Shown: piece by piece, positions 33,612 through 55,649 of the stretch
Position numbering within the stretch: the stretch's first letter is position 1
Layout: every line of letters begins with the position of its first letter
Assembly (NCBI GenBank): GCA_963674745.2
Contig: CAXXDV010000003.1
Location: forward strand, 2,464,001-2,528,000
Direction: 5' to 3'
Origin: Desulfosudaceae bacterium
Lineage (GTDB): Bacteria; Desulfobacterota; Desulfobacteria; Desulfobacterales; Desulfosudaceae
Length of the DNA: 64,000 nt
The notes under the pieces: model-generated
The model's database searches: none
Told to the model about the DNA's origin: nothing
What the model saw: the letters and a program-made list of their open reading frames with translations, nothing else
Translations under genes and position numbers: made by a program

Positions 33612-34646
33612 TTAATTTAGGTTCTCCAGAGTCCGGGCGATTATAATATTCACGACCCTGTCGTTTATTTCCCCTTCACTTATTACTAATTCATAGAGTT
33701 CCAGATCATCTATAAGCGCACTGATGAACTTTTCATCTGAAACCGCTTTTGCCAGTATCGTTTTGTCTTTACGGTCTGCAATATGGGTTTCAACAAGTTT
33801 GGCAAACATGGGAGTTTTAACGTATTTTTTTGTAATAGCCCTTGCTGTTTTCTTCGTGCCTTCTTTTGAAGGACCGGATTCAATTGCGATCATCATTAAC
33901 TCGTTATCTGAAGTAAGAAAATCAAGGATCGCTTCATCCTTATATGTCTGCTTTGCACGATTTCGTATGCTCGTTCGGGCCACGTCAATATTATCAGGAT
34001 GTAATGGGTCAGCATTATAATATTTATCGTTTTTAACAAATTCTTCCAGGTTTTCTAATATCTTGCGGGGGATCTTTGCCAGCTCACCATTCACCATAAA
34101 TGCTTTCAGGTTGCCCCCTGTTTCCAAATGGATGGAAAATATAACCTCGGTTTTATCATGGGCTTTATAAGACATGTTAATCTGTTGATACATTTTGGGA
34201 AGGCGCACATATTCCTCTTTATCCGGTATTTCAGGATCAGTAATGAGTTGTGATGTTGTCGTTATGTCACCGGTTTCAAGGGCAACAGAAGTCTTCGCAC
34301 TGATAATGGCATCCCGGTCATCTGCCGGCCAGGGGAAGTCCATGACCATGTACAGATCCATGTCATTCGAGTTGTATTGCCTGAGAACTTTTGAGCTTAT
34401 TACGCCATCCATCCATTCCTTCATTACCGGTGTGTCCCTAAGGACTGCACCGATCGCTGCCATGCTGGCATTGATAACTGCAGTGGCCTTGAATGCCTTG
34501 TATCTCGAGCCTTCAACATCTCGTGAGTAGGTTATGATACCATCATTATCTTTTTCAATTTCCCAATCAACAGCACCTGTTGCCGGCTGCAAAAGAAGCG
34601 CTAAGGTAAAACAAATGATACCTGTGTATACGCTTAAATTTTTCAT
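33612..34646 (-). CDS. Secreted START-domain lipid-binding protein
   Basis: Signal peptide; W.IEKDNDGI..YSR, KAFKA, W, FPWPADDRD START motifs; helical C-terminal extension. Confidence 0.75.
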   Translation of the reverse strand: MKNLSVYTGIICFTLALLLQPATGAVDWEIEKDNDGIITYSRDVEGSRYKAFKATAVINASMAAIGAVLRDTPVMKEWMDGVISSKVLRQYNSNDMDLYMVMDFPWPADDRDAIISAKTSVALETGDITTTSQLITDPEIPDKEEYVRLPKMYQQINMSYKAHDKTEVIFSIHLETGGNLKAFMVNGELAKIPRKILENLEEFVKNDKYYNADPLHPDNIDVARTSIRNRAKQTYKDEAILDFLTSDNELMMIAIESGPSKEGTKKTARAITKKYVKTPMFAKLVETHIADRKDKTILAKAVSDEKFISALIDDLELYELVISEGEINDRVVNIIIARTLENLN

Positions 34647-34704
34647 AATAGTTCCTTATACTTTTGTGTGGTGGTGCTGATCCTGAAGCAATGGCAGGGG
34701 GTTT

Positions 34705-35547
34705 CTATTTCATAGCTTTTTCGGGTAATCGGATTTTATTCATTACTAACCCTGTTATGATATAATTAAGCACCGGGCTCAGCCTTGACATGATATCCAT
34801 GAATTTCGCGTCCATCCCTACCATAAGTCTTTTTTTATTTTTAATTATCGCTCTTACGATCTTCTCCGCGCATTCTTCAGGTGTTGTTCTGAAAATAATA
34901 TCGGAAGACTTCACAAGATATTCTTTATTCATATTTTCATTAACACCCTTCACAAAACGCATATTTCTGGCAATATTGGTTTTAATCCCCCCGGGGTGAA
35001 CCGACGTGACATGAATGTTACTTGTCCTTAGTTCCTGGACCAGGGTCTCATTAAACCCCCTTACCGCGTATTTAGCACTGTTGTAGGGGCCGTTATGCGG
35101 GAAAGGCACCACGCCGTTAATACTCGAGATATTGACAATATTTGCTTCAGGGCGTTTCCTTAAATGCGGCAGAAACGCCTTGGTGCCATACACCACCCCC
35201 CAAAAAACAATGTTAAAACACCATTCAAAATTTTCATAAGAAATGTCTTCCAGGCTGTCGTGGACAGCTACGCCGGCATTATTGATGATAATATCAACCT
35301 GGCCGTGTTCATGCACAACATAATCAGCCCACTCAACCACCTGTTCTCTGTCTGATACATCGAGGGTAAACGTGCTGACCTTAATACCGCTTACTTTAAT
35401 CATATCAGCCGTCTTTTTCAGTTCATCTTCATTAATATCTGAAATAGCCAGATGGCACCCCCTGGCCGCAAGGTTTAACGCAAGGCACCGGCCGATTCCG
35501 GATCCGGCGCCTGTAATTGCCGCTACTTTATTCTTCAAGTTTTTCAT
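34705..35547 (-). CDS. SDR oxidoreductase
   Basis: TGAGSGIG, NNAG, YNSAK, HPGGI; ATG 35547 with AGGAG RBS. Confidence 0.9.
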   Translation of the reverse strand: MKNLKNKVAAITGAGSGIGRCLALNLAARGCHLAISDINEDELKKTADMIKVSGIKVSTFTLDVSDREQVVEWADYVVHEHGQVDIIINNAGVAVHDSLEDISYENFEWCFNIVFWGVVYGTKAFLPHLRKRPEANIVNISSINGVVPFPHNGPYNSAKYAVRGFNETLVQELRTSNIHVTSVHPGGIKTNIARNMRFVKGVNENMNKEYLVKSSDIIFRTTPEECAEKIVRAIIKNKKRLMVGMDAKFMDIMSRLSPVLNYIITGLVMNKIRLPEKAMK

Positions 35548-35569
35548 AATGCTATGGTTCTCCTTTTTT

Positions 35570-36610
35570 TTAAAGCAGCTTGTCACAGAGAAACGACACC
35601 TGGTCCTTGACGATGGTTTCGAAAAACTCGCCCACGTAGATGTCGAAATGGCCGGCGTCGTAAACGCGGACGTCCACGTTGGGCAGGCCTTTCGCAAAGT
35701 CGATGGTGGGACCGGCAGGGGCCACCGAGTCTTTGGAACTCACACAGATGAGGGCGGGACATTTGAGATGGCGCATGTATTTGCCCGGCACGTCGAGACC
35801 GATGCGCAGGGCGAATCTGCCCGCCACGCCATTGGCCGAATGCGTTCCTGTGGGCAGCCGCATGCTCCCCACGAACCGGGTCGTTTTCTCCTGTTCTTCA
35901 AAATCACCAAGTGAAACGTGGGCCGGCAGCTCGATGCGCTTGCTCGCGAAAAGTTTATAAAGTCTTGAGAGCTGCGCTGAAAATGTCGTGCCCGGCGGCA
36001 GCAGCGTGAGAATGCCTTTGACTACATCCGGCGCGGTCATTAATGCCGGTGTACCCGGAGTGCCCACGAGGGGTACGAGCAGCGGCTTGAACCCCACCCA
36101 GGCCATTAGCTGGTCGATGATGGCTATTGTACCGCTTCCCAGCATGCTCATAATTCCCAGTGCGCGCACCGAAGCGGGACCGCTCGTAAAAGGGCATTGG
36201 GAAATCACCGCGGCCACACCTCCGTCCTCGGCCCCCACCTTGATTACATGTCCTCCCGAAAAGGACGTGCCAAACAGGGCGATGCGCTCCGTGTCGATGA
36301 AAGACAGGGAGCGAGCGTATCTCAGCGCCGCGTGCCAGTCCTGCCGTTGCCGTTTGATGTCGAGCAGGTACCGGGGATTTCCCTCGCTGGAGCCGAAATG
36401 CCGATAGTCAAAAACAAGGGCCGCAAAACCCGCCTGGCTGAAACGCTCTGCATAGGCGTCCAACCGCATCTCGCGGATAGAGCCCAGGCCATGGGCCAAA
36501 ATAACCAGCGGCGCCCGCTCTATCCCCTCCGGGCGATAAAGCCAGGCGCTGCACCTAATTCCCAGGGATTCAAACGAAACATCTGTCCTGTTAAAGATAT
36601 GAGAAGACAT
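35570..36610 (-). CDS. Alpha/beta hydrolase
   Basis: AHG, FDYRHFG.S.G.PR, GTSFSGG nucleophile elbow, D and GHF. Confidence 0.85.
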   Translation of the reverse strand: MSSHIFNRTDVSFESLGIRCSAWLYRPEGIERAPLVILAHGLGSIREMRLDAYAERFSQAGFAALVFDYRHFGSSEGNPRYLLDIKRQRQDWHAALRYARSLSFIDTERIALFGTSFSGGHVIKVGAEDGGVAAVISQCPFTSGPASVRALGIMSMLGSGTIAIIDQLMAWVGFKPLLVPLVGTPGTPALMTAPDVVKGILTLLPPGTTFSAQLSRLYKLFASKRIELPAHVSLGDFEEQEKTTRFVGSMRLPTGTHSANGVAGRFALRIGLDVPGKYMRHLKCPALICVSSKDSVAPAGPTIDFAKGLPNVDVRVYDAGHFDIYVGEFFETIVKDQVSFLCDKLL

Positions 36611-36626
36611 GCGATCCCTCTTAAAA

Positions 36627-37451
36627 TTATTCCATCAATTTTTTAAATGCAGCGCCTGTCCACATAACCATTCTAATGGGAAAAATCCGGGAAGCCAGGT
36701 CCATCAGTCGGGCGTCTACGCCCACCATTATTCGTTTTTTATTTTTTTTTATGCCGGCAATAATGATCCTGGCGGCTTTTTCCGGTGAGGTTTTAGCGAT
36801 CCGTGAAAAATTCTCGGCAGCCCCGGCCTGATCCTGGCTGCCGGTTGCTGAGTGGTAGAAACGGGAGTTTGACACGATATTGGTGTTGATACCCCCGGGG
36901 TGAACGCTGCTGACATAAACGCCGGTACCGGCCAGTTCCTGCATCAGGGTTTCGCTGAAGGCCCGCACCGCATATTTAGACATGTTGTAAGGGCCGTTGT
37001 GGGAAAAGGGGATCATGCCGTTGATGCTGGAAATATTGACGATATGACCTTTTCCGCGTTTTTTCAGCAGGGGCAGAAAGGCCCGGGTGCCATACACAAC
37101 GCCCCACATGTTGATGTTGATGAGCCATTCAAAATCTTCGTAAGAGACGTTTTCAAGGGATTCAGTAACAGCGACCCCGGCGTTGTTGATAATCACGTCC
37201 ACTCCGCCGTGATGTGCCGCCGCGTCATCGGCATACCGGTACACCTGTTCCCGGTTTCCCGTGTCCACCAGGTGCGTGCTGATGGATGCGCTCAGCCCGC
37301 CGGCCATCCGGGCGGTTTCCTCGAGCCCTTTTTCGTTGATGTCCGACAACGCCAGCCGGCAGCCTTCCTGCGCCAGCCGCATGGCCAGCGCCCGGCCGAT
37401 CCCCGAACCCGCACCGGTAATGGCAACCACCTTGCTTTCCAGTGATTCCAT
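36627..37451 (-). CDS. SDR oxidoreductase (paralog of 34705-35547)
   Basis: TGAGSGIG, SSINGMIPFSHNGPYNMSK. Confidence 0.9.
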   Translation of the reverse strand: MESLESKVVAITGAGSGIGRALAMRLAQEGCRLALSDINEKGLEETARMAGGLSASISTHLVDTGNREQVYRYADDAAAHHGGVDVIINNAGVAVTESLENVSYEDFEWLININMWGVVYGTRAFLPLLKKRGKGHIVNISSINGMIPFSHNGPYNMSKYAVRAFSETLMQELAGTGVYVSSVHPGGINTNIVSNSRFYHSATGSQDQAGAAENFSRIAKTSPEKAARIIIAGIKKNKKRIMVGVDARLMDLASRIFPIRMVMWTGAAFKKLME

Positions 37452-39943: not shown

Positions 39944-40744
39944 TTGAAAATCTGGCTGGATATGCATATCGTGGGAAGCCATTTAAGACGGTTGGGCCCT
40001 CTGAGAGTTACCATCGGCGGCGGTTCAATGTATCTGAGTCTGCCCTTGTTTCTGTTCGCTCACCTGGTGTTTATTGAACTGCTTTTAAACCGGATATTAA
40101 CGCCGTTACTGGGCCTTCAGAAGCTGAAAACAACCAATTACATCGTCCTCGACCGCCACCGGACAAAAGGGTTGTCCCGGTTTGACAAATTAAATTGTGT
40201 GTTTTGCGGCTATGCCAACGGTATTTCGGTATTATTGAACGAAAAAATCTGTCAACTTGCTGAACGCAAAAAAGAGCTGGGATCCTTTAGTCCATCATAC
40301 AACATTGTTTTGTTTATAATTGTGGCTGTCTTTCTGCCATTTATGGTAGTTGTGAAATTTGCAGGCATGAACATCATTTACGATATCCTTGTGTCACGTC
40401 CCCTTTACATGCATAGAACCCGGACAAAAGATATCAAGCGTAAAATTCTCAGCACCGGTTCTGCTGATATGTTTAATCAGAACACCTTATTTGATATGCT
40501 GATTCTTCATTCAAAAATAATCGTCATCAGGTTGATAGACGCGCTTGAGCAAATTGAATCAGCATGGTGCCCCCTGAAACATAAGAAAGTCGGAGAAAAC
40601 GTTAAGTATCCGTTACACCACCGGAACTTCTTTGAACCGGATGATCTTGAAGCCATGAGAAGTTCGCTTTATCTGAACGGCACTGTTTCAGACAAAAAAC
40701 CCCTGGTTGAAATTAAAAATCCCGCATATCCTTTAGACAGATAA
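39944..40744 (+). CDS. Hypothetical membrane protein with CxxC and WCPxKH motifs
   Basis: YIVLDRH..KLNCVFCGYANG and E..WCPLKH; TM segments; start uncertain. Confidence 0.65.
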   Translation: MKIWLDMHIVGSHLRRLGPLRVTIGGGSMYLSLPLFLFAHLVFIELLLNRILTPLLGLQKLKTTNYIVLDRHRTKGLSRFDKLNCVFCGYANGISVLLNEKICQLAERKKELGSFSPSYNIVLFIIVAVFLPFMVVVKFAGMNIIYDILVSRPLYMHRTRTKDIKRKILSTGSADMFNQNTLFDMLILHSKIIVIRLIDALEQIESAWCPLKHKKVGENVKYPLHHRNFFEPDDLEAMRSSLYLNGTVSDKKPLVEIKNPAYPLDR

Positions 40745-40833: not shown

Positions 40834-40890
40834 TTCACAAAATGTCAAATCATATTCACATCTGGTCAATACTTAGAGCTCAAATATGTT
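40834..40890 (+). promoter_or_regulatory. Conserved island promoter/operator, copy 4
   Basis: TTCACAAAATGTCAAATCATA-TTCACATCTGGTCAATAC...TATGTT. Confidence 0.8.
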
Positions 40891-40943
40891 CTAGGGTAAT
40901 CATACAACCGAGCTTTTTTACAAATTGGAATAAGGAGAGCCTC

Positions 40944-41765
40944 ATGTTTAAAAACAAAACCATACTCATCACCGGCGGGTCATCCGGGCTTGGACTGGGG
41001 TTGGCTCAGGCACTTTTAGAAAGAGGCGCGCGCCTGATTCTTCTGGCCCGCACGCCAAAAAAACTGGAACAGGCAAAAGAGCGCCTGCTGAAAAACGTTC
41101 CCAACGGAAATGTAGATATCGTCCCCGTGGATGTAAGCGACCGCGAGACGTTGCACGAAGCGCTTGACGATGCTCTGAAAAGGCACCCCTCCCTGGACAT
41201 GGTCATCAACAATGCCGGGATATTAAGGGAAGGTTATTTTGAAAAACTGGCGGTAACGGATTTTGAAGAGATGTTCGGCGCCAACTACTTCGGCTGTCTA
41301 TATATAACGCGGATCACCCTGCCTTACTTGAAAAAATCCCGGGGCCGCCTGATCAACGTTGCATCTGTGGCGGGATTAACCGGCGGATTTGGACTTTCCG
41401 CATACGGCTCATCCAAATACGCGCTTGTTGGATTATCTGAAACATTACGCTGCGAACTAAAGCCACAGGGTGTTACCGTCCAGGTGGTATGCCCCCCGGA
41501 ATTTCTATCTCCCATGGTTGAGGAATTGGATACCTATCGGACACCGGAAAACCTGGCGCATACAATTATGATTCCCAGGCTGTCCCTGGATACTCTGGTG
41601 AAAGATACAGTAAAAGGCATTGAAAAAAACAAATTCAGGATTATCCCCGGCTGGCGGACACGATTGATGCTTCTCGGGGCGCAGCACTTTCCCGGTATCA
41701 GCCGTTTTTTTGCCGACCGGGTAATCAAAAAAGCCTATGTCGGTCCCGACCAGCATAATGGTTGA
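40944..41765 (+). CDS. SDR oxidoreductase (3-ketodihydrosphingosine reductase-like)
   Basis: ITGGSSGLG, NYFG, GLSAYGSSK, CPPEF.SP; ATG 40944 after AAGGAG. Confidence 0.85.
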   Translation: MFKNKTILITGGSSGLGLGLAQALLERGARLILLARTPKKLEQAKERLLKNVPNGNVDIVPVDVSDRETLHEALDDALKRHPSLDMVINNAGILREGYFEKLAVTDFEEMFGANYFGCLYITRITLPYLKKSRGRLINVASVAGLTGGFGLSAYGSSKYALVGLSETLRCELKPQGVTVQVVCPPEFLSPMVEELDTYRTPENLAHTIMIPRLSLDTLVKDTVKGIEKNKFRIIPGWRTRLMLLGAQHFPGISRFFADRVIKKAYVGPDQHNG

Positions 41766-41827
41766 AGCGCCCTCATCAGTCTAACGGAAAAGAGAACCAA
41801 AAGGGTTATATGATCTGGATATATACA

Positions 41828-41863
41828 GGGGATCTCTAAAAAAGCAATTTTTAGAGGTGCCTT
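41828..41863. repeat. Palindrome resembling collapsed IS/MITE ends
   Basis: GGGGATCTCTAAAAA-AGCAA-TTTTTAGAGGTGCCTT. Confidence 0.45.
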
Positions 41864-41897
41864 ACCGTTTTAATTACAAAAAGGAGATAAGATCACA

Positions 41898-42677
41898 ATG
41901 AAAACGGCACTCATTACCGGCGCGTCAAACGGCATTGGCCTTGAACTGGCCCGATTGTTTGCAAAAGACAAGATCAATGTCATTCTGGTCGCACGCAGTA
42001 AAGACAAATTGAACCGTATTGCCAGTGATTTTGAGCAGCAGTATGGCATCAAGGCGTTACCTGTCTCTGCCGACCTTTCCAGGCCCGGGTCGAGTCATGC
42101 GCTTTTTGAAGAAATCAGCCAGAACAATCATATGGATGTCGAGTTTCTTGTCAATAATGCCGGGGTTGGCATTTGCGGCACCATAAATGACACCAATATT
42201 GAACAAACATCAGCTATGCTTCAGCTCAATATGGTGAGCCTGGCGGAACTGACCATGCTGTTTCTGCCGGGGATGAAAAAAAAGAGAAGCGGTCGTATTT
42301 TAAATATCGGTTCTACTGCCGGTTATGTAATGCCTCACGGCTATGAAGTTGCCTATGCCGCAACAAAGTCCTTTGTGGTCAGCTTTTCAGAAGGCCTGCA
42401 TTTTGAACTGAAAGGGACGGGCGTTTCCTGTACCCATTTGAGCCCCGGCCCTACTCAAAGCAGTTTCTTTGACACGGCCGGTGCGAAAAGCGATGCCCGG
42501 TTACGGAACATGCTGATGGACACGAGGGTTGTGGCGCAAAAAGGGTACCGGGCAATGATGGCCGGGAAAAAGCACACGATCCCCGGCATTACCAATAAAG
42601 TGTTTGCATTTCTGGCCAGCCGGGTATCTCCATCTCGGAGACTGGTTTATACCTTATCCGGTGCGTTTGTAAAGTAG
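41898..42677 (+). CDS. SDR oxidoreductase
   Basis: TGASNGIG, NNAG, YAATK, PGPT. Confidence 0.9.
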   Translation: MKTALITGASNGIGLELARLFAKDKINVILVARSKDKLNRIASDFEQQYGIKALPVSADLSRPGSSHALFEEISQNNHMDVEFLVNNAGVGICGTINDTNIEQTSAMLQLNMVSLAELTMLFLPGMKKKRSGRILNIGSTAGYVMPHGYEVAYAATKSFVVSFSEGLHFELKGTGVSCTHLSPGPTQSSFFDTAGAKSDARLRNMLMDTRVVAQKGYRAMMAGKKHTIPGITNKVFAFLASRVSPSRRLVYTLSGAFVK

Positions 42678-42854: not shown

Positions 42855-43721
42855 ATGTCGCTATTGTTTGTCGAAGAATCTCATCATCCAGGTGTTCCCG
42901 AAATACAGCGTTTTGATGCCACGTCTGTTTATATTATGGTAAAGCGCCCTTCTTTCTCAGGAAGGGAACGGTTTAAAAAAAAATTGTTGTCCGGCTTTGT
43001 GGAACAGGTCAGGTCTGTTGGATCCGCTTTAAATTATACCGCATTTAAGCAGCATCATCTTGTCAGGAGCGGTGCGTTTGCCGCCATTTCCTATATTGCG
43101 ACTCGAAAGCACTTGAATGTCTCATTGCTGAGCCGCATCCGCGGCCTGACACCCCCGAAGCCGTATCATGTTTCCTTGTTTCCATATTATGACGCGGTGA
43201 TAGAATTTCAATTTGCCGACCGGTTGTCAAATAAACAGATAACAACGATCAAAGACCTTGCCCGTTATCTGGCCGGTAAGTGTAAACGGGTTTCCGTCAT
43301 GGAGAGTAATGTCCGCTATCAGGCATTCGACGATAAGAGCCCTGCCAATAAGAATCCTTTTCATATGGTGTTCATTTCACAGGAGCCATCTCATATTGCA
43401 CGTGAAAAAGCGCAAAAACACTGGATAAGTGATCATGCCGCTTTTGTCGTTAATCATGTCAAGTATACAAAAATGATACGCTATCGGATTTCCCATGCAA
43501 CCCTTGATAAAAAAAGCGCATTTGAAAACAGGTATGGCGGAATCGCGTTTGTAGAATTTAAAGGCCTGCCGGCTTTTATGCGTAACATGCTCAATCCCAA
43601 TGCGGTAAGGCTCAACAATTCAATCGTGCTGGATGAAATGAATTTATCGGCAGAGTCCAGAATTATGCTGATGAAAGAATACGATCTCGGGGCTAAAGGG
43701 AGCGGAAAGGAGGACACCTGA
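42855..43721 (+). CDS. EthD-like tandem-domain protein
   Basis: KRP..S...F, YDAVIE.F; HW...HA..V...RY.ISH, YGGIA.VEF, ..DE.N. Confidence 0.55.
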   Translation: MSLLFVEESHHPGVPEIQRFDATSVYIMVKRPSFSGRERFKKKLLSGFVEQVRSVGSALNYTAFKQHHLVRSGAFAAISYIATRKHLNVSLLSRIRGLTPPKPYHVSLFPYYDAVIEFQFADRLSNKQITTIKDLARYLAGKCKRVSVMESNVRYQAFDDKSPANKNPFHMVFISQEPSHIAREKAQKHWISDHAAFVVNHVKYTKMIRYRISHATLDKKSAFENRYGGIAFVEFKGLPAFMRNMLNPNAVRLNNSIVLDEMNLSAESRIMLMKEYDLGAKGSGKEDT

Positions 43722-43745: not shown

Positions 43746-44273
43746 ATGACTGAAGACGCAACCATGAACAATCAGAGCAGGCGATCGTTTTTCAAATCGA
43801 GTTTTAAAATGCTTACCGCCATTGGCCTGGGCGGAATATTTTACAGCGCTGCCAGATTTCTCGGTTCTGATTCGACTCCGGAGACAGGCCATAGCCATGC
43901 TTTTGGTGCCTTTCATCCGGACAATGAACGCATGACCGGATCAGGCGGCGGACTTCGCGCCTCAAAGGCCGCTGACGGTCGATATGAACTTGAGACTGAA
44001 TCCGTCCCCGCAGGCGTTGGCGCCGTTGTGTCTGCAGGAAGCCTGCCCATACTGGTAGTCCACGGGACGAACGGTTTCAGGGTATTTAACGCCACCTGCA
44101 CTCATCTTGGATGCCTTGTGAAATGGGATCCGGCGGCCAACATGTTCATCTGCCCCTGCCACGGCGGAAAATATGATGCAAACGGTCAGGTCATTGCCGG
44201 CCCACCTCCGAGTGCCCTTAAAGAACACACCGTTGCTGAAAAAGACGATATGATCAGAATTGCCATCACATGA
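43746..44273 (+). CDS. Rieske [2Fe-2S] protein with Tat anchor
   Basis: SRRSFFK, CTHLGC, CPCHG, GPPP. Confidence 0.93.
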   Translation: MTEDATMNNQSRRSFFKSSFKMLTAIGLGGIFYSAARFLGSDSTPETGHSHAFGAFHPDNERMTGSGGGLRASKAADGRYELETESVPAGVGAVVSAGSLPILVVHGTNGFRVFNATCTHLGCLVKWDPAANMFICPCHGGKYDANGQVIAGPPPSALKEHTVAEKDDMIRIAIT

Positions 44274-45517
44274 CAAAAAACATAATCGACACCTTTTTAA
44301 ACCGCGTTCGAGTCAGGCTGAAAGCAGCCGGTACTGTAAAAGCGCAGATTTTTTCCCGTTCCACCTTACAGCCGGAGAGCCGGCTTGATTACCTGGCCTA
44401 TTCCGGGACAGTCATTGCGGTACTGCTGGTGATTCAGTTTGCAACGGGCGTGCTGCTTTTACTTCATTATGAACCCTTTCCCTCGCGTGCGTTCTCATCT
44501 CTGCTGACCATCAGGAACGATGTTGAGTACGGACTGTTGTTTTCCAACCTTCATTCCGTGGGTTCCAAGCTGATTATACTGGTGATGTTTATTCACATGT
44601 TCAGGATTATGCTGGTTTCTGCCCACCGCGGCCCACGGTCCCCCCAGTGGTATGTCGGCGTTGGTCTCGCTTTTTTAATGCTTTTTACCGGTTTCTCCGG
44701 ATATCTTCTGCCCTGGTCCCAGCAGTCTTTCTGGGCCTGTGTTGTCGGTACCGAGTCGCTTCGCGTTTTTCCCGTCATTGGAAACACCGCCACATGGCTT
44801 CTACGGGGCGGTTCCGAAGTTAACGGCCTGACCCTGACCAGATTTTACTGGCTTCACATCACCCTGCTCCCCATTTCAATCATATACCTGGCATGGCTGC
44901 ACATAAAAATGGTCTGGAGAACAGGCGTGGCCGGGCCGGCAAAATCTTTTGCGGACGTGGCCACCGAAAATTGCGTGGGCTGCGGCAAATGCCGACAGGT
45001 CTGCTCGTTTAACGCGGTTTCCATGAAAGAGGATGGGGACAAAAAAGACAAACCGCTGATTGATCCTTCCAGATGCAATGGTTGCCGGGCCTGTGTGGAG
45101 GAATGCCCCAACGCCTGCATCTTCCTGTTCAAGGGAACAGAACCGTGCCGGTTGGAGCCCATATTTCCGGATAATATTGTCAGGAGAATGCTTGCGGTCT
45201 TCATTACAGTGGTAGTTCTTTTCGGATTTTCGTATTTCGGCCACGCTTTTCACAAGATCCCGGCCGACCCCATGCTGACACCGGAACGGATAAAGCCCGA
45301 CTGGTATTTCCTGGGGGCGTATCAATTCCTGAAAGCACTGCCAAGCGAAACCTGGGGGATACTGGCAATGCTGGCAATCTGTATCCTGATTGCGATTCTG
45401 CCGATTATTGACAAGTCAGGTTCCAGAAATCCCCGGCGTCGACCTGTATATATGCTGCTTGTTATTGGCGGTATTTCAGGGTTTATCATATTCACCTTCT
45501 GGGGATGGGTTTCCTGA
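44270..45517 (+). CDS. Cytochrome b (b6 + subunit IV fused) with inserted 2x[4Fe-4S] ferredoxin
   Basis: Four heme His, GYLLPW.Q.SFWA, CVGCGKCRQVC and CNGCRACVEECP, IKPDWYF (PEWY-type) motif. Confidence 0.9.
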   Translation: MTKNIIDTFLNRVRVRLKAAGTVKAQIFSRSTLQPESRLDYLAYSGTVIAVLLVIQFATGVLLLLHYEPFPSRAFSSLLTIRNDVEYGLLFSNLHSVGSKLIILVMFIHMFRIMLVSAHRGPRSPQWYVGVGLAFLMLFTGFSGYLLPWSQQSFWACVVGTESLRVFPVIGNTATWLLRGGSEVNGLTLTRFYWLHITLLPISIIYLAWLHIKMVWRTGVAGPAKSFADVATENCVGCGKCRQVCSFNAVSMKEDGDKKDKPLIDPSRCNGCRACVEECPNACIFLFKGTEPCRLEPIFPDNIVRRMLAVFITVVVLFGFSYFGHAFHKIPADPMLTPERIKPDWYFLGAYQFLKALPSETWGILAMLAICILIAILPIIDKSGSRNPRRRPVYMLLVIGGISGFIIFTFWGWVS

Positions 45518-45518
45518 C

Positions 45519-46316
45519 ATGAAAAAATATTTTTTCCTGCTATTCCTCCTGCTCGTCCTGGTTTCAAAAACAACGGCACAGGACAGATTATTTCTGCTCC
45601 AGGACAACTGCATTAAATGCCATCTGTGGTGCGAGACAAAAAGCGGCGAAAACTCGGTTGTCAAATGGAAAAGGAGCGTTCATTTCAGGCCGGATACCGC
45701 CTGCGCCGACTGCCATGGCGGCGATCGGCTTTTATATCTGGATTTTAAAGCCGGACACATGGGAATGCCTGACAGAAACCAATCAGTAGGGATGTGCGAA
45801 CAGTGTCATGAGCAGGCTGTACGTGATTTCATAGGCCGCAAGGTGTCGCAGACAAAAAACAATAAGTGCACGGTAAGCTGCGTTGACTGCCACGGGCATC
45901 ACCAGATTGAAAAACCGGATGCTCCGGCCATGTTCCAAAGAACCTGCCGTAAATGTCATTCTCCGGACAAAGCCGCCGCGATTGCAAACACGATACAAAA
46001 AACAGAATCCCGCCTGGCATTTGTTGAGGCGGAAATAAAGTCCCACGAAACATCCGGACTGCCGGTTCTGACCCCGAAGGAAATGCTGAAAGATATTCAA
46101 CGGCAGTATGCGCGGGGATTTCACAAAAATACGTTTTCAAAACAGGAACCGTTTCTGACTGGAGAATTGTCATATGCAATAGATGATCTTGAAGACCGTT
46201 TGGGCCGTTCAGCCCCGAACCAATGGCATATTCAGGGGTATATGGTCATAGCCTTTCTGGGCCTGATCTGTGTTTTGCTGACGGCCTACTTAGCGACCCT
46301 GAAAAAGAAAGAATAA
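45519..46316 (+). CDS. Pentaheme cytochrome c with signal peptide and C-terminal TM anchor
   Basis: CIKCH, CADCH, CEQCH, CVDCH, CRKCH; start ATG 45519. Confidence 0.88.
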   Translation: MKKYFFLLFLLLVLVSKTTAQDRLFLLQDNCIKCHLWCETKSGENSVVKWKRSVHFRPDTACADCHGGDRLLYLDFKAGHMGMPDRNQSVGMCEQCHEQAVRDFIGRKVSQTKNNKCTVSCVDCHGHHQIEKPDAPAMFQRTCRKCHSPDKAAAIANTIQKTESRLAFVEAEIKSHETSGLPVLTPKEMLKDIQRQYARGFHKNTFSKQEPFLTGELSYAIDDLEDRLGRSAPNQWHIQGYMVIAFLGLICVLLTAYLATLKKKE

Positions 46317-46335: not shown

Positions 46336-46674
46336 ATAAACGACACATGCCAAGACAAGACAAACTGCCCCTGGACAGGAAGGATCGCCCTGATCCTCGC
46401 CCTTGTTGCTGTTTTTATGGCGTTTAAGGCCGGGCATTCCTCAAAAATCAACGCCATAACCAGCATCAATGAGATGATAACGGACAAGGTCGTACCCCAG
46501 ATGGCCAGGGCCACCGAAAGGGATGTCATCGGCCATATCTACGATCTGAAACGGACCATGGTTACCCTTGAGGAGATAAAGGAGACCACGGCCAACGAGG
46601 ACGTCAAAGCCATGGTGGACAAAATCCGCAAGGACATTGAGGAACTTAACGTCAAACTCTTTGTGCATGAATAG
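46336..46674 (+). CDS. Small single-TM coiled-coil protein (probable ATA start)
   Basis: GGAGGA RBS 5 nt before an in-frame ATA at 46336, which adds TM segment RIALILALVAVF to the 46417 ORF. Confidence 0.6.
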   Translation: MNDTCQDKTNCPWTGRIALILALVAVFMAFKAGHSSKINAITSINEMITDKVVPQMARATERDVIGHIYDLKRTMVTLEEIKETTANEDVKAMVDKIRKDIEELNVKLFVHE

Positions 46675-46679
46675 GGGGT

Positions 46680-48545
46680 ATGGCCATGCCTGATAAGGAC
46701 AAGCCGGAAAACATTTTCCAAAAACCGATCAACCGCCGTAATTTTTTAAAAATAAGCGCTGCCGCAGCAGCGGCCGGCGTAATGGGGCCCGGACTTTCAG
46801 GCTGTGCCCCGGAGATTTACCGGGGCCATTACCCGGATGTGCCCGAAAACCATGTCTCGCTTTCGCCCAACGGGAAAAGTGTGCTCATCCTGGGCGGTGG
46901 TTTCGGCGGCATGCACGCGGCCTGCGAACTGCTTGACCGGGGTTTTGAAGTCACGATTATCGAAAAATCAAGCATGCTCGGGGGAAAACTCAAGAGTTGG
47001 CGGGATCCCGGGTTCGGCATCCCGCCCACGGATGATCCCAACTGGAAGGGATATCCCAGGGATCACGGTGCGCACGCGGTGTGGGGGTTTTACAACAACC
47101 TGAGAGAATTCATGGGCAGACACGGCTATAAACTGGCGACCTTCCCCCGGGAATCCACCATGTACAATTTTCTGGATAAAGACGGTTCCCAGGCTGTCAT
47201 GGGTTCTGCACCCACATGGCCCGGCCCCCTGGCAAATCTTCAAAGAGGCCTTGAGACAAAACATGCCATTGAAAAATTAACCGGAGAAGATCCGGGCGCC
47301 ATGCTGTACATGAACAAAATCTTTGGCTTTGACTATGAGAGCAAGAAGCAGCGGGCCTATCTGGACAGCATTTCTTTTCCCGAGTGGGCGCGACTGGTAG
47401 GCATACCGGACAAGCTGATTTATAAGTTCTTCGGTCCCACGTCTGAAATGGCCATGTTCGACCACATCGATAACACCAGCGCGCTCTATATGCTGACAAC
47501 GCTGAGCCTGGGCTCGGGCAGTTATAGGGACATGTGCGTTGATATTTTCACCCACCCTCCCGGCGAAACCTATGCCGAGCCCATTGAGCGCTACATCCTG
47601 GCCAAAGGCGGAAAGATCATTTATGACATGCCGGTCATCAAGGTCAATCATGACGGCAGAAAGATTAAGAGCGTCCTTGCCGGTGATGAAAATTTTGTCC
47701 CGGGTGTGAAAAACTGGAAATGTAATGTCTGCGGATCAACCTTTCCTTCGCCGGCCAAGCCGTTCAGATGCCCGGTATGCGGTGCCCCCATTACCCAGAT
47801 CAGGGCCCTGTCTTCAGGCCCGCCTAAAGAATACCTGGCGGATTATTATGTGGTTGCCATGGACACGCCCGGCGCCAAACAGGTGGTGGCAAAATCGGGG
47901 CTGCTGGGGGACACCTATTTTGACAATATCATGAAGCTGGATGCGACCGGCGTCTATGTTGTCAATTTATGGTATGCCGACTGCAATGCATGGGAGCGCC
48001 GTTTTCCCAAACATGGTGATTTTTTCGCTTCCGGATTCAAGTTTCTGGGCATCACGCTCAACTGGGCGGTTTCTCGAAAATCCAAAGACGGACAAGACAG
48101 ACAATACCTTGTACCGGATTATCAGGGCAAAAACATCAACGTGATTGAAACCCAGATAGCCAATACCGAGCGGGTGGAGAACAAATCAGACGAAGAAATC
48201 GCCCGGCTGGTTCACGAGGAGTTATTGTGCGTGATGCCGGATTTACCCGTGCCGACGGATTTTTATGTCAACCGGTGGGACACCTATTCACCCCAGCGGA
48301 CCGGGTACGAGGCCCTGCGACCCGATATTCAGAGCCCGGTAGACAACCTGTTTTTCATCGGCGACTGGGTTCTGACAAACCATGAAAGCGTTTATATGGA
48401 GAAAACCAACGTGGCCTCAAAAATGGTGACCAACCTGTTACTGGACAAGATCGGACAAAAACAGGGCCGTATGAAAATACTGAAAAGCGGCGATCCCGAC
48501 CTTACGATGAGGGTACTCAAAGCGTTAAACAATCCATACCCGTAA
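46680..48545 (+). CDS. Tat-exported lipoprotein FAD oxidoreductase, CrtU/zeta-carotene desaturase-like, with rubredoxin-like insert
   Basis: NRRNFLK Tat motif, LSGC lipobox, GGGFGG...LGGK, HGAHAVWGFYNNL, CNVC-x12-CPVC, NLFFIGDWV..YMEK. Confidence 0.8.
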   Translation: MAMPDKDKPENIFQKPINRRNFLKISAAAAAAGVMGPGLSGCAPEIYRGHYPDVPENHVSLSPNGKSVLILGGGFGGMHAACELLDRGFEVTIIEKSSMLGGKLKSWRDPGFGIPPTDDPNWKGYPRDHGAHAVWGFYNNLREFMGRHGYKLATFPRESTMYNFLDKDGSQAVMGSAPTWPGPLANLQRGLETKHAIEKLTGEDPGAMLYMNKIFGFDYESKKQRAYLDSISFPEWARLVGIPDKLIYKFFGPTSEMAMFDHIDNTSALYMLTTLSLGSGSYRDMCVDIFTHPPGETYAEPIERYILAKGGKIIYDMPVIKVNHDGRKIKSVLAGDENFVPGVKNWKCNVCGSTFPSPAKPFRCPVCGAPITQIRALSSGPPKEYLADYYVVAMDTPGAKQVVAKSGLLGDTYFDNIMKLDATGVYVVNLWYADCNAWERRFPKHGDFFASGFKFLGITLNWAVSRKSKDGQDRQYLVPDYQGKNINVIETQIANTERVENKSDEEIARLVHEELLCVMPDLPVPTDFYVNRWDTYSPQRTGYEALRPDIQSPVDNLFFIGDWVLTNHESVYMEKTNVASKMVTNLLLDKIGQKQGRMKILKSGDPDLTMRVLKALNNPYP

Positions 48546-48687
48546 ACCGGGATGGCACAGTTAGGGCTATGAATAGATTTCCGGACGATTTCCGAGGTCA
48601 GTATATCTAATTCAATCTATTAACAGCGAAAATTAGTCAACTAACAAAGGCTCATTTTTGATTCTTAACATATTTACAGGGGGGATT

Positions 48688-49530
48688 ATGCTTACAGTAG
48701 ATTGGGCCTGGACGTATGCTTTTGGCGCAGGATTCGCGGCCTGCGCGGCAAGACAACTGAAAAAAGAAGAAAAACCGTTTGACAACCAGTGGTATGTTTT
48801 TACGCTTACTTTTTTTTCGGTTTTTTTCGTACCCGCATGTGTTTACCTCTTATGGGAACATCCCCAATGGGAAAGCGCGCAGCTGGCCAAAACGTTTACT
48901 GACCTGCCTGCCTGGCTGGTGACCGGTTATGCGGTCACCAATGTCACGCAGGGGATCCTGGGCTTTTGGGTTTCATTCAAACTGATTAAAAAAGGGAATT
49001 ACTACGCCGCCCACGCCAACTGGATGGCCGCCTGGATCCTCATGTGGTTCCTCGCTTTCTGCGGATGGGATTGTACCGGCTACCAGCGTTGGCTTTATGA
49101 CATGAGTGTAAACAACGGTCAATACTGGACACCCGGCACACACATGGGTGTCCGATTTTTCTATGCCAGCAAGATCTGGTGGACACTGGTGGTCATGGGG
49201 ATCTTTTTCGTCCCCATGCTGATTCACGGCTCTGTCAGCTTCGTCCGCAACGGCTTTAAGGAAGACCCATCCATTCCAGCCGGAACTGCCCCCGGCCCCA
49301 TCAGGATCCTGGCTGTTGTTTTTGGCGCACAATATGTTGTCTGCCTGGGGCTGGCAATCCTGGCCACGCTGTGCGTCATGGGCTTACGGAACCTGACCGG
49401 CAGTACGCTGACCGGTTACCTCATTGGCGTTCCGCTTTTTTCTATAGCAACCTACGTTCTGCTTTTCAGAAGGGGCATGCCCATGAACTTAATTGCCAGG
49501 CAATTGTATGTTAAAGAACCGGGGGAATAG
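48688..49530 (+). CDS. Multi-pass membrane protein of unknown function
   Basis: About 7 TM segments, Trp-rich; VD..W.YA.GAGFA..A.RQL N-terminus; ATG 48688. Confidence 0.7.
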   Translation: MLTVDWAWTYAFGAGFAACAARQLKKEEKPFDNQWYVFTLTFFSVFFVPACVYLLWEHPQWESAQLAKTFTDLPAWLVTGYAVTNVTQGILGFWVSFKLIKKGNYYAAHANWMAAWILMWFLAFCGWDCTGYQRWLYDMSVNNGQYWTPGTHMGVRFFYASKIWWTLVVMGIFFVPMLIHGSVSFVRNGFKEDPSIPAGTAPGPIRILAVVFGAQYVVCLGLAILATLCVMGLRNLTGSTLTGYLIGVPLFSIATYVLLFRRGMPMNLIARQLYVKEPGE

Positions 49531-49729: not shown

Positions 49730-49812
49730 ATTAAGCACTTAATCAGCTTCGACCGTTTCGGTTTTAAAACGCATATCGTAACAACACTATTTTGGGGAAG
49801 GACGAAAAGATC

Positions 49813-51876
49813 ATGAAAGAAAACGTTTTCAGAAGAATGGTAATCCTTACATTTATTACCCTGACATTGCTGTTTCAATCAGCCGCTGTATTTGCAGTTG
49901 CCCCACCACCCCCGCCCCCGACCTATACCCTGACCGTCAACAACGGCAGTGGTGACGGGGCTTATCCGGCTGATGCGGCAATCAATATTGTTGCCGATGC
50001 AGCTCCGGCCGGCCAGGTGTTTGACCGCTGGGAAGTCGTTTCCGGAGGCGCCCGTATCGCTTCTGTCCGGGTTGCCAGCACCACCGTTACGATGCCGTCA
50101 AATAATGCCACTGTGACCGCGACATACATTGAACCGCAACCGCTTGATTTCAGCTGCCACCCCTATTCCCTGTCAACCTGCGCCATGCCGTACCCGAACG
50201 ACCTTTTTACGCCTGAAGAGATGACAGCTACCTTTTCAGAAGATCTTTTGTCACAGCTCCCTGAAAGTCTATTTCCAACAACCATTCTAAAAGACCGCGA
50301 TGGCTGGTCACCGGTAACGGCCGTATTATTTGAGGTACCCTATAAAATAAACGAATGTGCGCTCCCGCTCAATGGGGATAATGTTCTGAAGGTATTTGAC
50401 ATGGACGACCCCTATGCACCGCCTGTTCCTGTCAGGGTTCGACTCAGCCAGCCTGCCGAAGTAGAGAAGCAAAACTGGCAGATATTGAACCCGGGAGCAA
50501 AGACCCACCAGGTGATTGAAGCATTTCCGCGATCCCGCTTCCCCTTCGGGCACCGGATGGCGGCCGTGCTGACCACCGCCCTGAAGGCAGCCGACGGTAC
50601 CATCCCCACAGCGCCGGAGATACCCGAAGCATATGAAGGCCTGGCCTACGAACTGGCGGGTCGCGGCGTTGATCCGGGTACCATTTTATCCTTGACCGAG
50701 TTTACCATTGCCACGGAAGAAAACACCACCGGCAAGCTGTTTGATATGATCGATGTTATAGAAAATCAGGGTCATCCTGTCAAAGACCTTAAAATAGAAA
50801 GATGGTTAGGCCTGGATGTTGATACAGTCGTGAGAGGCAAAGTCCGCCTGACCAGTTTTCGTGATCTGAATGGCGATGGCATGGTTCACTTTGAAGCGGG
50901 AGATACCGGTAAAGAATACTGGGCTGATTTTGACCTCTTTTTTCCCTCTGAAGCCGATTGGGGGTCGGTGCCTGTCTGTATATACGGACACGGGCTGGAT
51001 GGGGATAAGGAAACAGCTGTTGTCTTCGCGGAATTAAATGCCGATGAAGGGATAGCCACATTGGCCATTGACTGGCCCAACCACGGTACCCGTTCATCAA
51101 AAGACGGCGGTCAAATGAAAACGCTGTTTGCCCCTGAAACCGTAAGTTTTATTACCGGCATGGCCGTTCAGGGTGTTCTTGATTTCCATTCTGTGATGGC
51201 CGCCATACGGGGCAGCCTTGCGGACCTGGACGTGATGCCGCCGCATGAGTGGTATAACTCCTTGAGGCCGGGATATGGCAGGCCGGATATTGATACAGAC
51301 AGGATATATTATATGGGCACCTCCCTGGGCGGTGTTTTCGGGAGCGGCTATGTCGGCAGTGCCACCGGCCTTGACGGCGCTTTTCTGCAGGTCTCCGGCG
51401 TGGGTATTATGCGGACACTGGCGCTTTCCGGCCTGTATGAAAGTATGGGATTTTACAAGATGGTGCCCATGGGCGCCACCCCTTCTGAAACGGCACTTCT
51501 CTTTAACTATGTGCAGAACATCGTGGATGTGGCCGATGGCGCCAACCTGATCCACAATATTCAGGATCCGAATGTCGGCGGGCAGAAAACACCGCTGGTG
51601 GTCCAGTATGGCCTGCATGACAGTATTGTTCACAATGACTCGTCTGAGGCAATGGCTGAAATCGCGGGCCTTAAACAGGTTCCGCCCGTTTGGAGAGACT
51701 TGGCTTATATCCCGAACACATGTGACGATGACGCTCCTTTTGCCCTTGTCCAGGGTACTTGGCCGGTCCCGTCCATTGAGGTTCTTGGACTTGACCTGGC
51801 GATGATCCAGCACATCTCCTTTCTTACACCCAGCGCGCTGTACTATTACGAGAACTGGCTGGCAAATATAAAGTAG
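49813..51876 (+). CDS. Secreted lipase-like alpha/beta hydrolase with Pro-rich linker and bacterial-repeat domain
   Basis: Signal peptide, PPPPPP, YTLTVNNGSG repeat domain, PYPND, DGWSP, HGL, IDWPNHG, GTSLGG, D..V.N, H. Confidence 0.75.
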   Translation: MKENVFRRMVILTFITLTLLFQSAAVFAVAPPPPPPTYTLTVNNGSGDGAYPADAAINIVADAAPAGQVFDRWEVVSGGARIASVRVASTTVTMPSNNATVTATYIEPQPLDFSCHPYSLSTCAMPYPNDLFTPEEMTATFSEDLLSQLPESLFPTTILKDRDGWSPVTAVLFEVPYKINECALPLNGDNVLKVFDMDDPYAPPVPVRVRLSQPAEVEKQNWQILNPGAKTHQVIEAFPRSRFPFGHRMAAVLTTALKAADGTIPTAPEIPEAYEGLAYELAGRGVDPGTILSLTEFTIATEENTTGKLFDMIDVIENQGHPVKDLKIERWLGLDVDTVVRGKVRLTSFRDLNGDGMVHFEAGDTGKEYWADFDLFFPSEADWGSVPVCIYGHGLDGDKETAVVFAELNADEGIATLAIDWPNHGTRSSKDGGQMKTLFAPETVSFITGMAVQGVLDFHSVMAAIRGSLADLDVMPPHEWYNSLRPGYGRPDIDTDRIYYMGTSLGGVFGSGYVGSATGLDGAFLQVSGVGIMRTLALSGLYESMGFYKMVPMGATPSETALLFNYVQNIVDVADGANLIHNIQDPNVGGQKTPLVVQYGLHDSIVHNDSSEAMAEIAGLKQVPPVWRDLAYIPNTCDDDAPFALVQGTWPVPSIEVLGLDLAMIQHISFLTPSALYYYENWLANIK

Positions 51877-54468: not shown

Positions 54469-54578
54469 CTATAGTTTTAAATTAATTAGCGCCGCCGTGC
54501 CGGCTCAAGCCCGGTTATTTCATGAAATATCGGCCAGGGCGCTCAAGACAATCAGCACCAACGAAGAAGGGGGAAAGA

Positions 54579-55649
54579 ATGGAGAAAACAAGAATGGTAA
54601 GTAAAATCATGGTACTGTCATTACTAACCCTGTTTATGCTTGCTCAGTCAGCCATTGTTTTTGGATCGGCCCCGCCGCCGCCTGCACCTACCGGCACCGT
54701 TGAACAACCGGCCACAGGATATGGCTCAAACGGCCCGTATGGCGTCGGCCACAAATCTTTCTGTAACACCAGGGACTTGACCAAGAAAGTGCACATTTTT
54801 TATCCGATTGGCGCAACCCCGGCACCAACGATATTCTTTTCTCATGGTTATACGGGCAGCGACCCGAAATTCTATCAGGCAATGATCGATCATTTTGTCA
54901 GCAACGGGTATTCTGTGGTTTTTCCAAATACGGGTGAAATTGGAATCGTCATATATCCACTCTGGGTTTTTCATACCTACGAGCTTTTCTGGCACGGAAT
55001 GGAACAGGCCGCCAGAAATTACAGCCATCTGATCGACACGGATAAAGTCGGGTTCATCGGGCATTCATTGGGTGCCGGCGCAGTCCCATGGCTTTGCTAT
55101 AAGGGGGCGCAAGAGGGCTGGGGAGACGAAGGGCTATTCATGATTCAATGCGCGCCATGGTACACGTATAATATGAGTGATTGTGAACTGGCCAGCTTTC
55201 CTCCCCACACTAAATATCTGTGCATGAATTATGAAGACGATACAACCAATGACCACCGGATGGGTATCGATATATTTAATCATATAAACATTACCGACCC
55301 GGAAAAAGATTATATCCTGTATCACAGCAGTTCAAATTGTTCTGCCAGCATGGCAGCAGATCACAATTTAATCGTCAGCGAGGATAATGATGGCCCATGC
55401 CTAGATGGCCTGGATTATTATTCGTGGCGGCATATGGATGCCTTAGCCGATTATGCATTTACAGGCAGCCCCGAAGCCTGGGAGATCGCCCTTGGAAATA
55501 ACAGCGATGCCCAAAGATACATGGGGGAATGGACATGTGACGGAACACCTGCAAGAAAGTGCAGCGTAACCGATTACCCGGTCCCATCTAAAGACCAGAC
55601 AGCATATTTGTTCTGGTGGTCCGGTATTTTAAATCCAAGAAATTATTAA
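54579..55649 (+). CDS. Secreted cutinase/chlorophyllase-like alpha/beta hydrolase
   Basis: Signal peptide + PPPP, GPYGV, HGYTG, GHSLG, APW, Cys-rich; ATG 54579. Confidence 0.75.
   Translation: MEKTRMVSKIMVLSLLTLFMLAQSAIVFGSAPPPPAPTGTVEQPATGYGSNGPYGVGHKSFCNTRDLTKKVHIFYPIGATPAPTIFFSHGYTGSDPKFYQAMIDHFVSNGYSVVFPNTGEIGIVIYPLWVFHTYELFWHGMEQAARNYSHLIDTDKVGFIGHSLGAGAVPWLCYKGAQEGWGDEGLFMIQCAPWYTYNMSDCELASFPPHTKYLCMNYEDDTTNDHRMGIDIFNHINITDPEKDYILYHSSSNCSASMAADHNLIVSEDNDGPCLDGLDYYSWRHMDALADYAFTGSPEAWEIALGNNSDAQRYMGEWTCDGTPARKCSVTDYPVPSKDQTAYLFWWSGILNPRNY

Follow-up and report, generated by a model that had tools for sequence, protein, structure and literature searches.

A putative exported flavoenzyme family with a rubredoxin-type insert in the slot of the CrtU Rieske domain, encoded beside a Rieske/cytochrome b cassette in a Desulfosudaceae genome

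We analysed a 64,000-nucleotide stretch of a Desulfosudaceae bacterium genome (assembly GCA_963674745.2, contig CAXXDV010000003.1, positions 2,464,001 to 2,528,000; hereafter the window) and concentrated on the gene at 46680..48545 of its + strand, which encodes a flavoenzyme of the phytoene-desaturase/CrtU fold. We found that this protein belongs to a real, conserved and apparently undescribed family inside a known superfamily. Two new points are solid, namely a swap by which the family carries a rubredoxin-type four-cysteine module where CrtU carries a Rieske domain, and a dedicated respiratory cassette beside the gene. We propose, with a probability of roughly 45%, that the enzyme is a periplasmic, lipid-anchored flavin dehydrogenase acting on a hydrophobic C-C substrate, and that its electrons reach menaquinone via a Rieske/cytochrome b complex working in reverse.

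The open reading frame (ORF) of 621 amino acids is intact and was assigned from the ORF call, Pfam, NCBIfam and a structure model. Translation probably starts at the second ATG (46686), which we prefer because of the spacing to the ribosome site and because the database protein has 619 amino acids. All features of the gene lie on the + strand. The twin-arginine motif RRNFLK (46734..46751) was recognised by Pfam TAT_signal (29.8 bits against a cut-off of 22.7) and TIGR01409 (22.3 against 16.7), and is followed by the lipobox LSGC (46794..46805), whose Cys42 is conserved in the near clade of the family and predicted to be lipidated. The GxGxxG motif for binding flavin adenine dinucleotide (FAD) reads GGGFGG (46893..46910), and the C-terminal FAD motifs GDW...MEK (48360..48404) were located by motif and alignment. 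The RDHGAH motif (47058..47075) includes His129 and His132; in our alignment the former is common to CrtU (9/9) and absent from PDS/ZDS-like and HpnE rows, and the latter is present in all. An insert of ∼53 amino acids (residues 334-386; 47679..47837), delimited by alignment to CrtU-like proteins and to the CrtU of Thiodictyon, contains the CxxC-x12-CxxC motif (CNVC...CPVC; 47721..47780), which motif and profiles assign as a rubrerythrin-type rubredoxin module with a predicted Fe(Cys)4 site, Zn being possible. The twin-arginine, lipobox, GGGFGG and CNVC-x12-CPVC motifs of the original prediction were thus all confirmed in place. The top Pfam family was Amino_oxidase (E 6e-32), and none of the curated cut-offs was reached for HpnE (94.9 bits, cut-off 283; the top NCBIfam model), ZDS (89, cut-off 622) or PDS TIGR02731 (55, cut-off 569). 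Promoter and terminator scans gave chance-level results only.

A profile search over 1.84 billion representatives supplied the distant relatives for an alignment of 182 proteins, in which we compared the slot between residues 334 and 386. Members of the flavoenzyme family have 42-56 amino acids and four cysteines there, 14 proteins have 104-123 amino acids with a Rieske motif, and the rest have 4-37 amino acids. In Thiodictyon CrtU (THSYN_RS31305, on plasmid pTs485 and adjoining crtY) the Pfam Rieske domain spans residues 329-392, in the same slot; we infer that this locus tag is the CrtU of the CrtY/CrtU pair named in a passage of PMC5944118, and a passage of PMC6553663 notes a Rieske centre in CruE. 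When we built a profile from 36 insert sequences, rubredoxins and rubrerythrins were retrieved first (E 3e-8 to 1.2e-7; a zinc-finger array ranked 9), with a rubrerythrin matching positions 1-33 of 37 at E 1.2e-7, and the insert conforms to the rubrerythrin-type pattern CxxCG...CPxCG with ∼12 residues between. The profile scored 27-44 bits on four rubredoxin/rubrerythrin-type domains of the genome, labelled as such by motif, and no more than -3 bits on any of 15 proteins with a Rieske domain. We considered that the insert could be a decayed Rieske domain, since its cysteine knuckles align with the Rieske boxes, and rejected this, as the insert profile fails on the Rieske-bearing proteins; its recognition of rubredoxin-type domains but not of Rieske inserts favours replacement of the module over decay. 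The simplest reading of the alignment would be that a single site has accepted one-electron carriers of two kinds. Because this site holds a Rieske domain in CrtU/CruE, the insert is likely a redox relay, although the shared slot does not by itself prove iron; the one-electron relay of the original prediction is supported by this equivalence of position. We consider it probable that redox-active iron in the insert serves as a relay, whichever way the electrons flow. A distant protein without a signal, P0212, has a four-cysteine insert of its own in the same slot, and Rieske inserts occupy it on three separate branches (P0117, P0124, P0130, P0202 and P0213), which suggests repeated insertions.

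Our homologue search, in which 7998 candidates were scored, yielded 94 family proteins including that of the window. All four insert cysteines are present in 93 of them, the exception being P0018, in which one is replaced by serine. A genome scan gave 59 loci, and after removal of L067, which matched only in the Rossmann motif, 58 were counted; the four-cysteine motif was found at 54, and of the other four, two are truncated at a contig end. Retention on this scale indicates that the motif is not a chance occurrence. Judged by record title, the carriers include Desulfobacterales, other deltaproteobacteria, HdN1, Aromatoleum, Sterolibacterium, Aquabacterium, Nitrospirae, Bacteroidetes and many Leptospiraceae, several of which we take to be lineages known for life on lipids, hydrocarbons or steroids. 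The distribution is patchy, since only 2 of 60 relatives possess the gene. It is duplicated within one locus in L016, L023, L030 and L065, and in the first two of these the double genes occur with a 2-hydroxyacyl-CoA-dehydratase-like pair, its activase and an ATPase-like gene. Some members are automatically annotated as isorenieratene synthase, and the clusters returned by an ESM Atlas search with a homologue were all of generic FAD oxidoreductases, two of the clusters being cyanobacterial and Rieske-bearing. No publication on the family was recognised by title or abstract start in a search that left most subscription papers outside, and the locus tags HDN1F_18440 and SMB24898 were absent among the literature matches listed (25 of 410).

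The AlphaFold2 model of the flavoenzyme had a predicted local distance difference test (pLDDT) score of 88.5, with 86-91 across the insert, and a predicted TM-score (pTM) of 0.88. Its best structural match was the rice phytoene desaturase PDS (5MOG; Foldseek E 1.5e-25); a second aligner gave Z 34.5 for PDS, with a root-mean-square deviation of 2.1 over 446 residues, and Z no higher than 25.9 for all others. Trees were built on core columns with the insert excluded; rows were taken as CrtU on the basis of organism, automatic name and similarity to Thiodictyon CrtU, which was itself aligned and not placed in the trees, and NicA2 was absent from them. The family formed one clade with support of 100 in FastTree (111 rows) and in IQ-TREE with 45 and with 23 rows; a starred split set it and CrtU apart from PDS/ZDS and HpnE. 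Its sister group varied, being CrtU in the 45-row tree (88, unstarred), with a basal position in the 23-row tree. In approximately unbiased (AU) tests (23 rows, LG+G4), grouping with the twin-arginine, Rieske-bearing CrtU (p-AU 0.0006) and with PDS/ZDS (p-AU 0.0013) was rejected; we also rejected identity with HpnE, given the score below the curated cut-off, the separate clade and the missing hopanoid context. The protein is not a CrtU: the phylogeny places it near the CrtU side of the tree, in a clade of its own outside CrtU, PDS/ZDS and HpnE.

From the RR motif, the hydrophobic stretch, the conserved lipobox cysteine and the genomic TatC we predict that the flavoenzyme is a lipoprotein exported by twin-arginine translocation (Tat). 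The motif is present as RR or RK in 91 of the 94 family proteins (query plus 93 homologues), the remaining three being N-terminally truncated. A cysteine follows 18-24 residues after RR in 34/34 near-clade proteins with a signal peptide; elsewhere one stands at the lipobox position in 1/53 mid-clade proteins (at an odd position) and 2/6 far-clade proteins. As far as the sequences go, the lipobox is specific to the near clade, and most family members have the twin-arginine motif and hydrophobic stretch without it. The export signal and lipid anchor proposed in the original prediction are supported by the Tat models together with the conserved RR and lipobox cysteine. Its further statement that CrtU relatives are cytoplasmic is contradicted, both by the twin-arginine motifs of Rieske-type CrtU and by enrichment of A1248/crtU in Synechococcus with a lumenal probe, as reported in PMC7880944. 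The N-terminus of Thiodictyon CrtU reads MKRRIFL and is followed by a hydrophobic stretch, and the motif is shared by 9 of the 14 relatives that bear a Rieske domain, among them proteins of Chlorobiales, Prochlorothrix and Thiohalocapsa. Examples of such Rieske-type CrtU/CruE from purple, green and cyanobacteria are L168:7765-9669, P0127, P0133 and P0150. The lumenal APEX2 probe enriched A1248/crtU 5.88 and the protein was absent from cytoplasmic samples (PMC7880944, Table 1); since that table also includes periplasmic and integral membrane proteins, the result places it on the non-cytoplasmic face rather than strictly in the lumen. Export is thus not the new point, as Rieske-type CrtU shares it, and it is implied that aromatic carotenoid rings, and the biomarkers that derive from this step, are finished on the lumenal or periplasmic side. 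We found no paper stating that CrtU/CruE form aromatic rings outside the cytoplasm, most subscription papers being outside the search.

Directly upstream of the flavoenzyme gene, also on the + strand, lies the respiratory cassette. It begins with a Rieske protein (43746..44273; Pfam, NCBIfam, motif) with a twin-arginine anchor and the box II sequence CPCHGGKY, which is of the G-Y type. The next gene (44270..45517; Pfam, alignment) encodes a cytochrome b in which b6 and subunit IV are fused, with four haem histidines, the Qo motif PDWY, no haem ci cysteine and, by Pfam, a 2x[4Fe-4S] ferredoxin insert at ∼44963-45121. It is followed by a pentahaem cytochrome c (45519..46316; ORF, motifs) with five CxxCH motifs, a Sec-type signal and a C-terminal membrane anchor, and by a small membrane-anchored subunit (46336..46674; Pfam, homologues) of no known family. 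The gaps are -4 nucleotides between Rieske and cytochrome b genes, 1 between cytochrome b and cytochrome c, and 5 between small subunit and flavoenzyme. The hydrophobic N-terminal segment of the small subunit (46336-46416) is in frame only from an ATA at 46336, six nucleotides after GGGAGG, which may reflect an unusual start codon, a mutation or an error in the sequence; the first ATG is at 46417. The cassette occurs within 4 kb of the flavoenzyme gene in 6 of the 58 loci, all in the near clade, and also in G002. Among 401 genomes of the class, the small subunit was found in six, always beside the flavoenzyme gene, which itself was found in seven. The proposed link to a cytochrome is strengthened by this conservation.

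The non-biosynthetic role that had been suggested agrees with the gene content, as a search of the entire genome, which is 99.96% complete, found neither a squalene/phytoene synthase (PF00494; its control matched 8/14) nor a squalene-hopene cyclase, that is, neither crtB nor shc. We detected dsrA, tatC, menaquinone genes and cytochrome bd in the genome, and COX1 (cytochrome c oxidase) and NrfA gave no match in it; we counted the lack of either enzyme to drain the cytochrome in favour of our proposal. A second Rieske/cytochrome b system (G000:C3:141810-152273, L171) comprises a Rieske protein, a split cytochrome b with APWY and an octahaem cytochrome c, and the locus also encodes an ethylbenzene-dehydrogenase-like molybdoenzyme with beta and gamma subunits. 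By analogy, an enzyme of this kind that appears wired to a Rieske/cytochrome b complex in the same genome was counted as a point for oxidation.

We propose that the flavoenzyme would strip two hydrogens, in the fashion of a desaturase, from a hydrophobic substrate, probably a lipid or isoprenoid, at the outer membrane face. Electrons would pass singly from FAD to the predicted iron-rubredoxin insert, on to the pentahaem cytochrome c and into the Rieske/cytochrome b complex, which would run in reverse and reduce menaquinone. The analysis establishes the fold, the signals, the four cysteines, the slot held in common with the CrtU Rieske domain, the conservation of the cassette and the missing biosynthetic pathway; that FAD is bound, that the insert holds iron and that the enzyme touches the cytochrome, as well as direction and substrate, are deduced rather than observed. 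The couple between C-C and C=C lies at ∼0 to +100 mV. Menaquinone is placed at ∼ -80 mV in a passage of PMC4122944. On these approximate potentials such a couple could not reduce menaquinone directly, so that a sulfate reducer using menaquinone would need an uphill step, which may be driven by proton-motive force or by low-potential electrons via the ferredoxin insert of cytochrome b; relatives in aerobes or denitrifiers, which have no cassette, would not need it. Since the flavoenzyme is the only evident periplasmic partner of the pentahaem cytochrome, the cassette would form one circuit between substrate and menaquinone. Oxidation is supported by the model, which resembles the dehydrogenase PDS much more closely than amine oxidases (Z 34.5 against at most 25.9), and by analogy with the nearest characterised relatives, CrtU/CruE, desaturases whose Rieske domain fills the slot of the insert. 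According to PMC5703498, the electron acceptor of PDS is quinone and not O2, and Arg300 of PDS is linked to quinone binding. The equivalent of Arg300 is Leu in 72/95 rows of our family and Phe in 7/9 CrtU rows, and its loss in both insert-bearing families fits another electron exit. In the amine-oxidase superfamily, a Tat signal with an adjacent Sec cytochrome c gene marks dehydrogenases that use cytochrome c (a passage of PMC12224317), and reverse Q-cycle coupling has been proposed for p-cresol methylhydroxylase (a passage of PMC4122944).

The genes around the family loosely point to lipid catabolism, with no single substrate. Within 4 kb, the 58 loci contain genes for a steroid-5-alpha-reductase-like protein (18), a CxxC membrane protein (13), an acetoacetate-decarboxylase-like protein (13) and short-chain dehydrogenases (SDRs; 10), more rarely for 2-hydroxyacyl-CoA-dehydratase-like proteins (5), nitroreductase (2) and NrfD (1), and acyl-CoA enzymes and thiolases recur nearby. 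In the window, two SDRs lie upstream (40842..42677, + strand; Pfam). The CxxC membrane protein is encoded 6 kb upstream of the flavoenzyme gene (39944..40744, + strand; homologues, model). Its helical family (113 matches) has an invariant NCxxCGYANG, QIExxWCP and His, its model (pLDDT 92.5) found no PDB match at E 0.001 with Foldseek, and it is possibly a new metal-binding membrane protein. As a dedicated partner it was rejected, since only 6 of its 51 best metagenome loci (L086-L136, many of them short) have the flavoenzyme and it is present in 2 of the 401 class genomes; despite adjacency to the flavoenzyme gene in 13/58 loci it is a loose partner. The regions 33612-37451, 49792-51876 and 54522-55649 of the window are lipid-flavoured. 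Several SDRs are encoded there, as are an alpha/beta hydrolase and a secreted lipase-like protein; chlorophyllase is matched weakly, and a START-like protein, so labelled by eye, has seven paralogues. The genes that flank the cassette, 42855-43721 and 48658-49530, have no Pfam/NCBIfam family; each has a close paralogue at another site of the genome (82% and 72%), and relatives of the flavoenzyme gene do not keep either as a neighbour. In three Leptospirales-type loci (L040, L058 and L064) a ccmE-like gene is located upstream of the flavoenzyme gene in divergent orientation.

Several observations weigh against our proposal. The six cassette genomes are kin, from three families, and so not independent, and 52 of the 58 loci have no cassette, which shows that the family does not need it. 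Neighbouring genes vary by lineage and are mostly cytoplasmic. As a single sequence the insert ranks C2H2 zinc fingers first, its score for Pfam RUBY_RBDX (PF21349) is 25.1 bits, 1.4 below the cut-off of 26.5, and alignment puts the slot within the beta-meander of the FAD domain. Even in PDS, Arg300 is dispensable (PMC5703498). The Qo motif is PDWY in 6/8 and PEWY in 2/8 cassettes; passages of PMC4122944 tie PDWY to menaquinol oxidation and APWY to proposed reverse operation, and describe a separate PDWF-FeS clade without a Rieske partner. The APWY-type complex of the genome is the second system and not the flavoenzyme cassette.

PDWY favours the main rival, in which the flavoenzyme is a terminal reductase that receives electrons from menaquinol through Rieske/cytochrome b, the pentahaem cytochrome, rubredoxin and FAD and reduces a C=C bond or, in the manner of HpnE, removes a hydroxyl, while a low-potential electron could exit via the ferredoxin insert. 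PDWY/PEWY with a G-Y Rieske, the ∼200 mV class, would fit forward menaquinol oxidation (passages of PMC4122944), no other sink for cytochrome c was found in the genome, a steroid-5-alpha-reductase-like gene is a neighbour in 18/58 loci, and in L028 (7937-9875), a spirochaete metagenome-assembled genome, an NrfC/NrfD-like quinone module lies directly upstream of the flavoenzyme gene and offers a second quinone link. However, by our estimate of the potentials a Rieske centre at ∼+200 mV would be a poor donor to a flavin or C=C couple at ∼0 mV, the nearest characterised relatives are desaturases, and a terminal reductase would be of less use to aerobic carriers such as Leptospira and Aquabacterium. 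We consider this reading unlikely, though it is the strongest competitor to the dehydrogenase proposal.

Less probable still is a NicA2/Pnao-type dehydrogenase of the periplasm that acts on amines, amino acids or alcohols and uses rubredoxin and cytochrome c, its substrate bond being other than C-C. Besides the top Pfam family, position 536 is always aromatic (Tyr in 85 and Phe in 10 of 95 rows) and position 572 commonly so, at what we take to be about the site of the aromatic cage in amine oxidases; the acetoacetate-decarboxylase-like neighbours retain the Lys of G[YF]PK (13/58 loci), which would suit carbonyl products, and there is the precedent in passages of PMC12224317. The fold and the profile are nevertheless far nearer to PDS (profile E 3e-79, against 7e-19 for amine oxidase), and Phe at 536 is found in CrtU as well (8/9). 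We regard it as very unlikely that the protein is a flavin isomerase or hydratase acting on unsaturated lipids without net redox change, its zinc knuckle being structural and its link to the cassette one of co-regulation only, since the insert occupies the slot of the Rieske domain, the cassette is never seen without the flavoenzyme (6/6), and the RGGREM-type motif of oleate hydratases is absent from the family, which has DHGxH. In its favour are weak scores of oleate hydratases against the flavoenzyme, the match of zinc fingers to the single insert sequence, and SDR, acetoacetate-decarboxylase-like and nitroreductase neighbours that resemble the linoleate conversion set of lactobacilli in a passage of PMC9241672. 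Beyond the dehydrogenase proposal itself, it is a tentative and rather unlikely extension that the flavoenzyme founds a family of extracellular-lipid desaturases with which anaerobes start breakdown of lipids or isoprenoids outside the cytoplasm without oxygen, by quinone-based confurcation in which a cytoplasmic ferredoxin module supplies a second, low-potential electron, with a redox-active periplasmic rubredoxin and a modular slot refilled several times with Rieske or rubredoxin.

Comparison with known systems shows what is shared and what is distinct. HpnE is the top NCBIfam model for the flavoenzyme; it nevertheless forms a separate clade, HpnE rows have neither export signal nor insert, and the genome has no hopanoid pathway. 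A parallel in electron transfer is p-cresol methylhydroxylase with the bc1 complex of Geobacter metallireducens, the former belonging, we assume, to a different flavoenzyme family. There a periplasmic oxidising flavoenzyme is likewise clustered with a Rieske/cytochrome b proposed to run in reverse, but the motif is APWY rather than PDWY and no ferredoxin insert is described (in passages of PMC4122944). NicA2 and Pnao with CycN belong to the same superfamily and share the Tat signal and an adjacent Sec-type cytochrome c gene, but lie on another branch, act on amines and have no Rieske/cytochrome b cassette; the passages of PMC12224317 that were searched mention no rubredoxin, Rieske, desaturase or quinone. 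PDS/CrtP (5MOG) and ZDS/CrtQ include the best structural match and provide flavin-only dehydrogenase chemistry as a model, yet they have no insert, no bacterial export signal and a quinone in the substrate cavity, and Arg300 is not conserved in the flavoenzyme.

The desaturase/methyltransferases of aromatic carotenoids, CrtU/CruE (Thiodictyon Cad16, Synechococcus A1248, Chlorobiales), resemble the flavoenzyme in fold, HGxH motif and twin-arginine N-terminus and also carry a metal-binding module at this position, with ∼24% identity between the flavoenzyme and Thiodictyon CrtU. They differ in carrying Rieske where the flavoenzyme has the rubredoxin-type four-cysteine module and in forming a separate clade (AU p 0.0006), and it is the flavoenzyme that has the near-clade lipobox, a respiratory cassette of its own and no carotenoid pathway in its genome. 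An unstudied enzyme family is thereby defined, some of whose members bear the label isorenieratene synthase although the genome examined here has no carotenoid pathway. Since the Rieske/cytochrome b complexes of sulfate reducers gain a single defined partner, their direction and the role of the ferredoxin insert become testable, and the exchange of Rieske for rubredoxin suggests a route by which CrtU-type flavoenzymes may be reoxidised.

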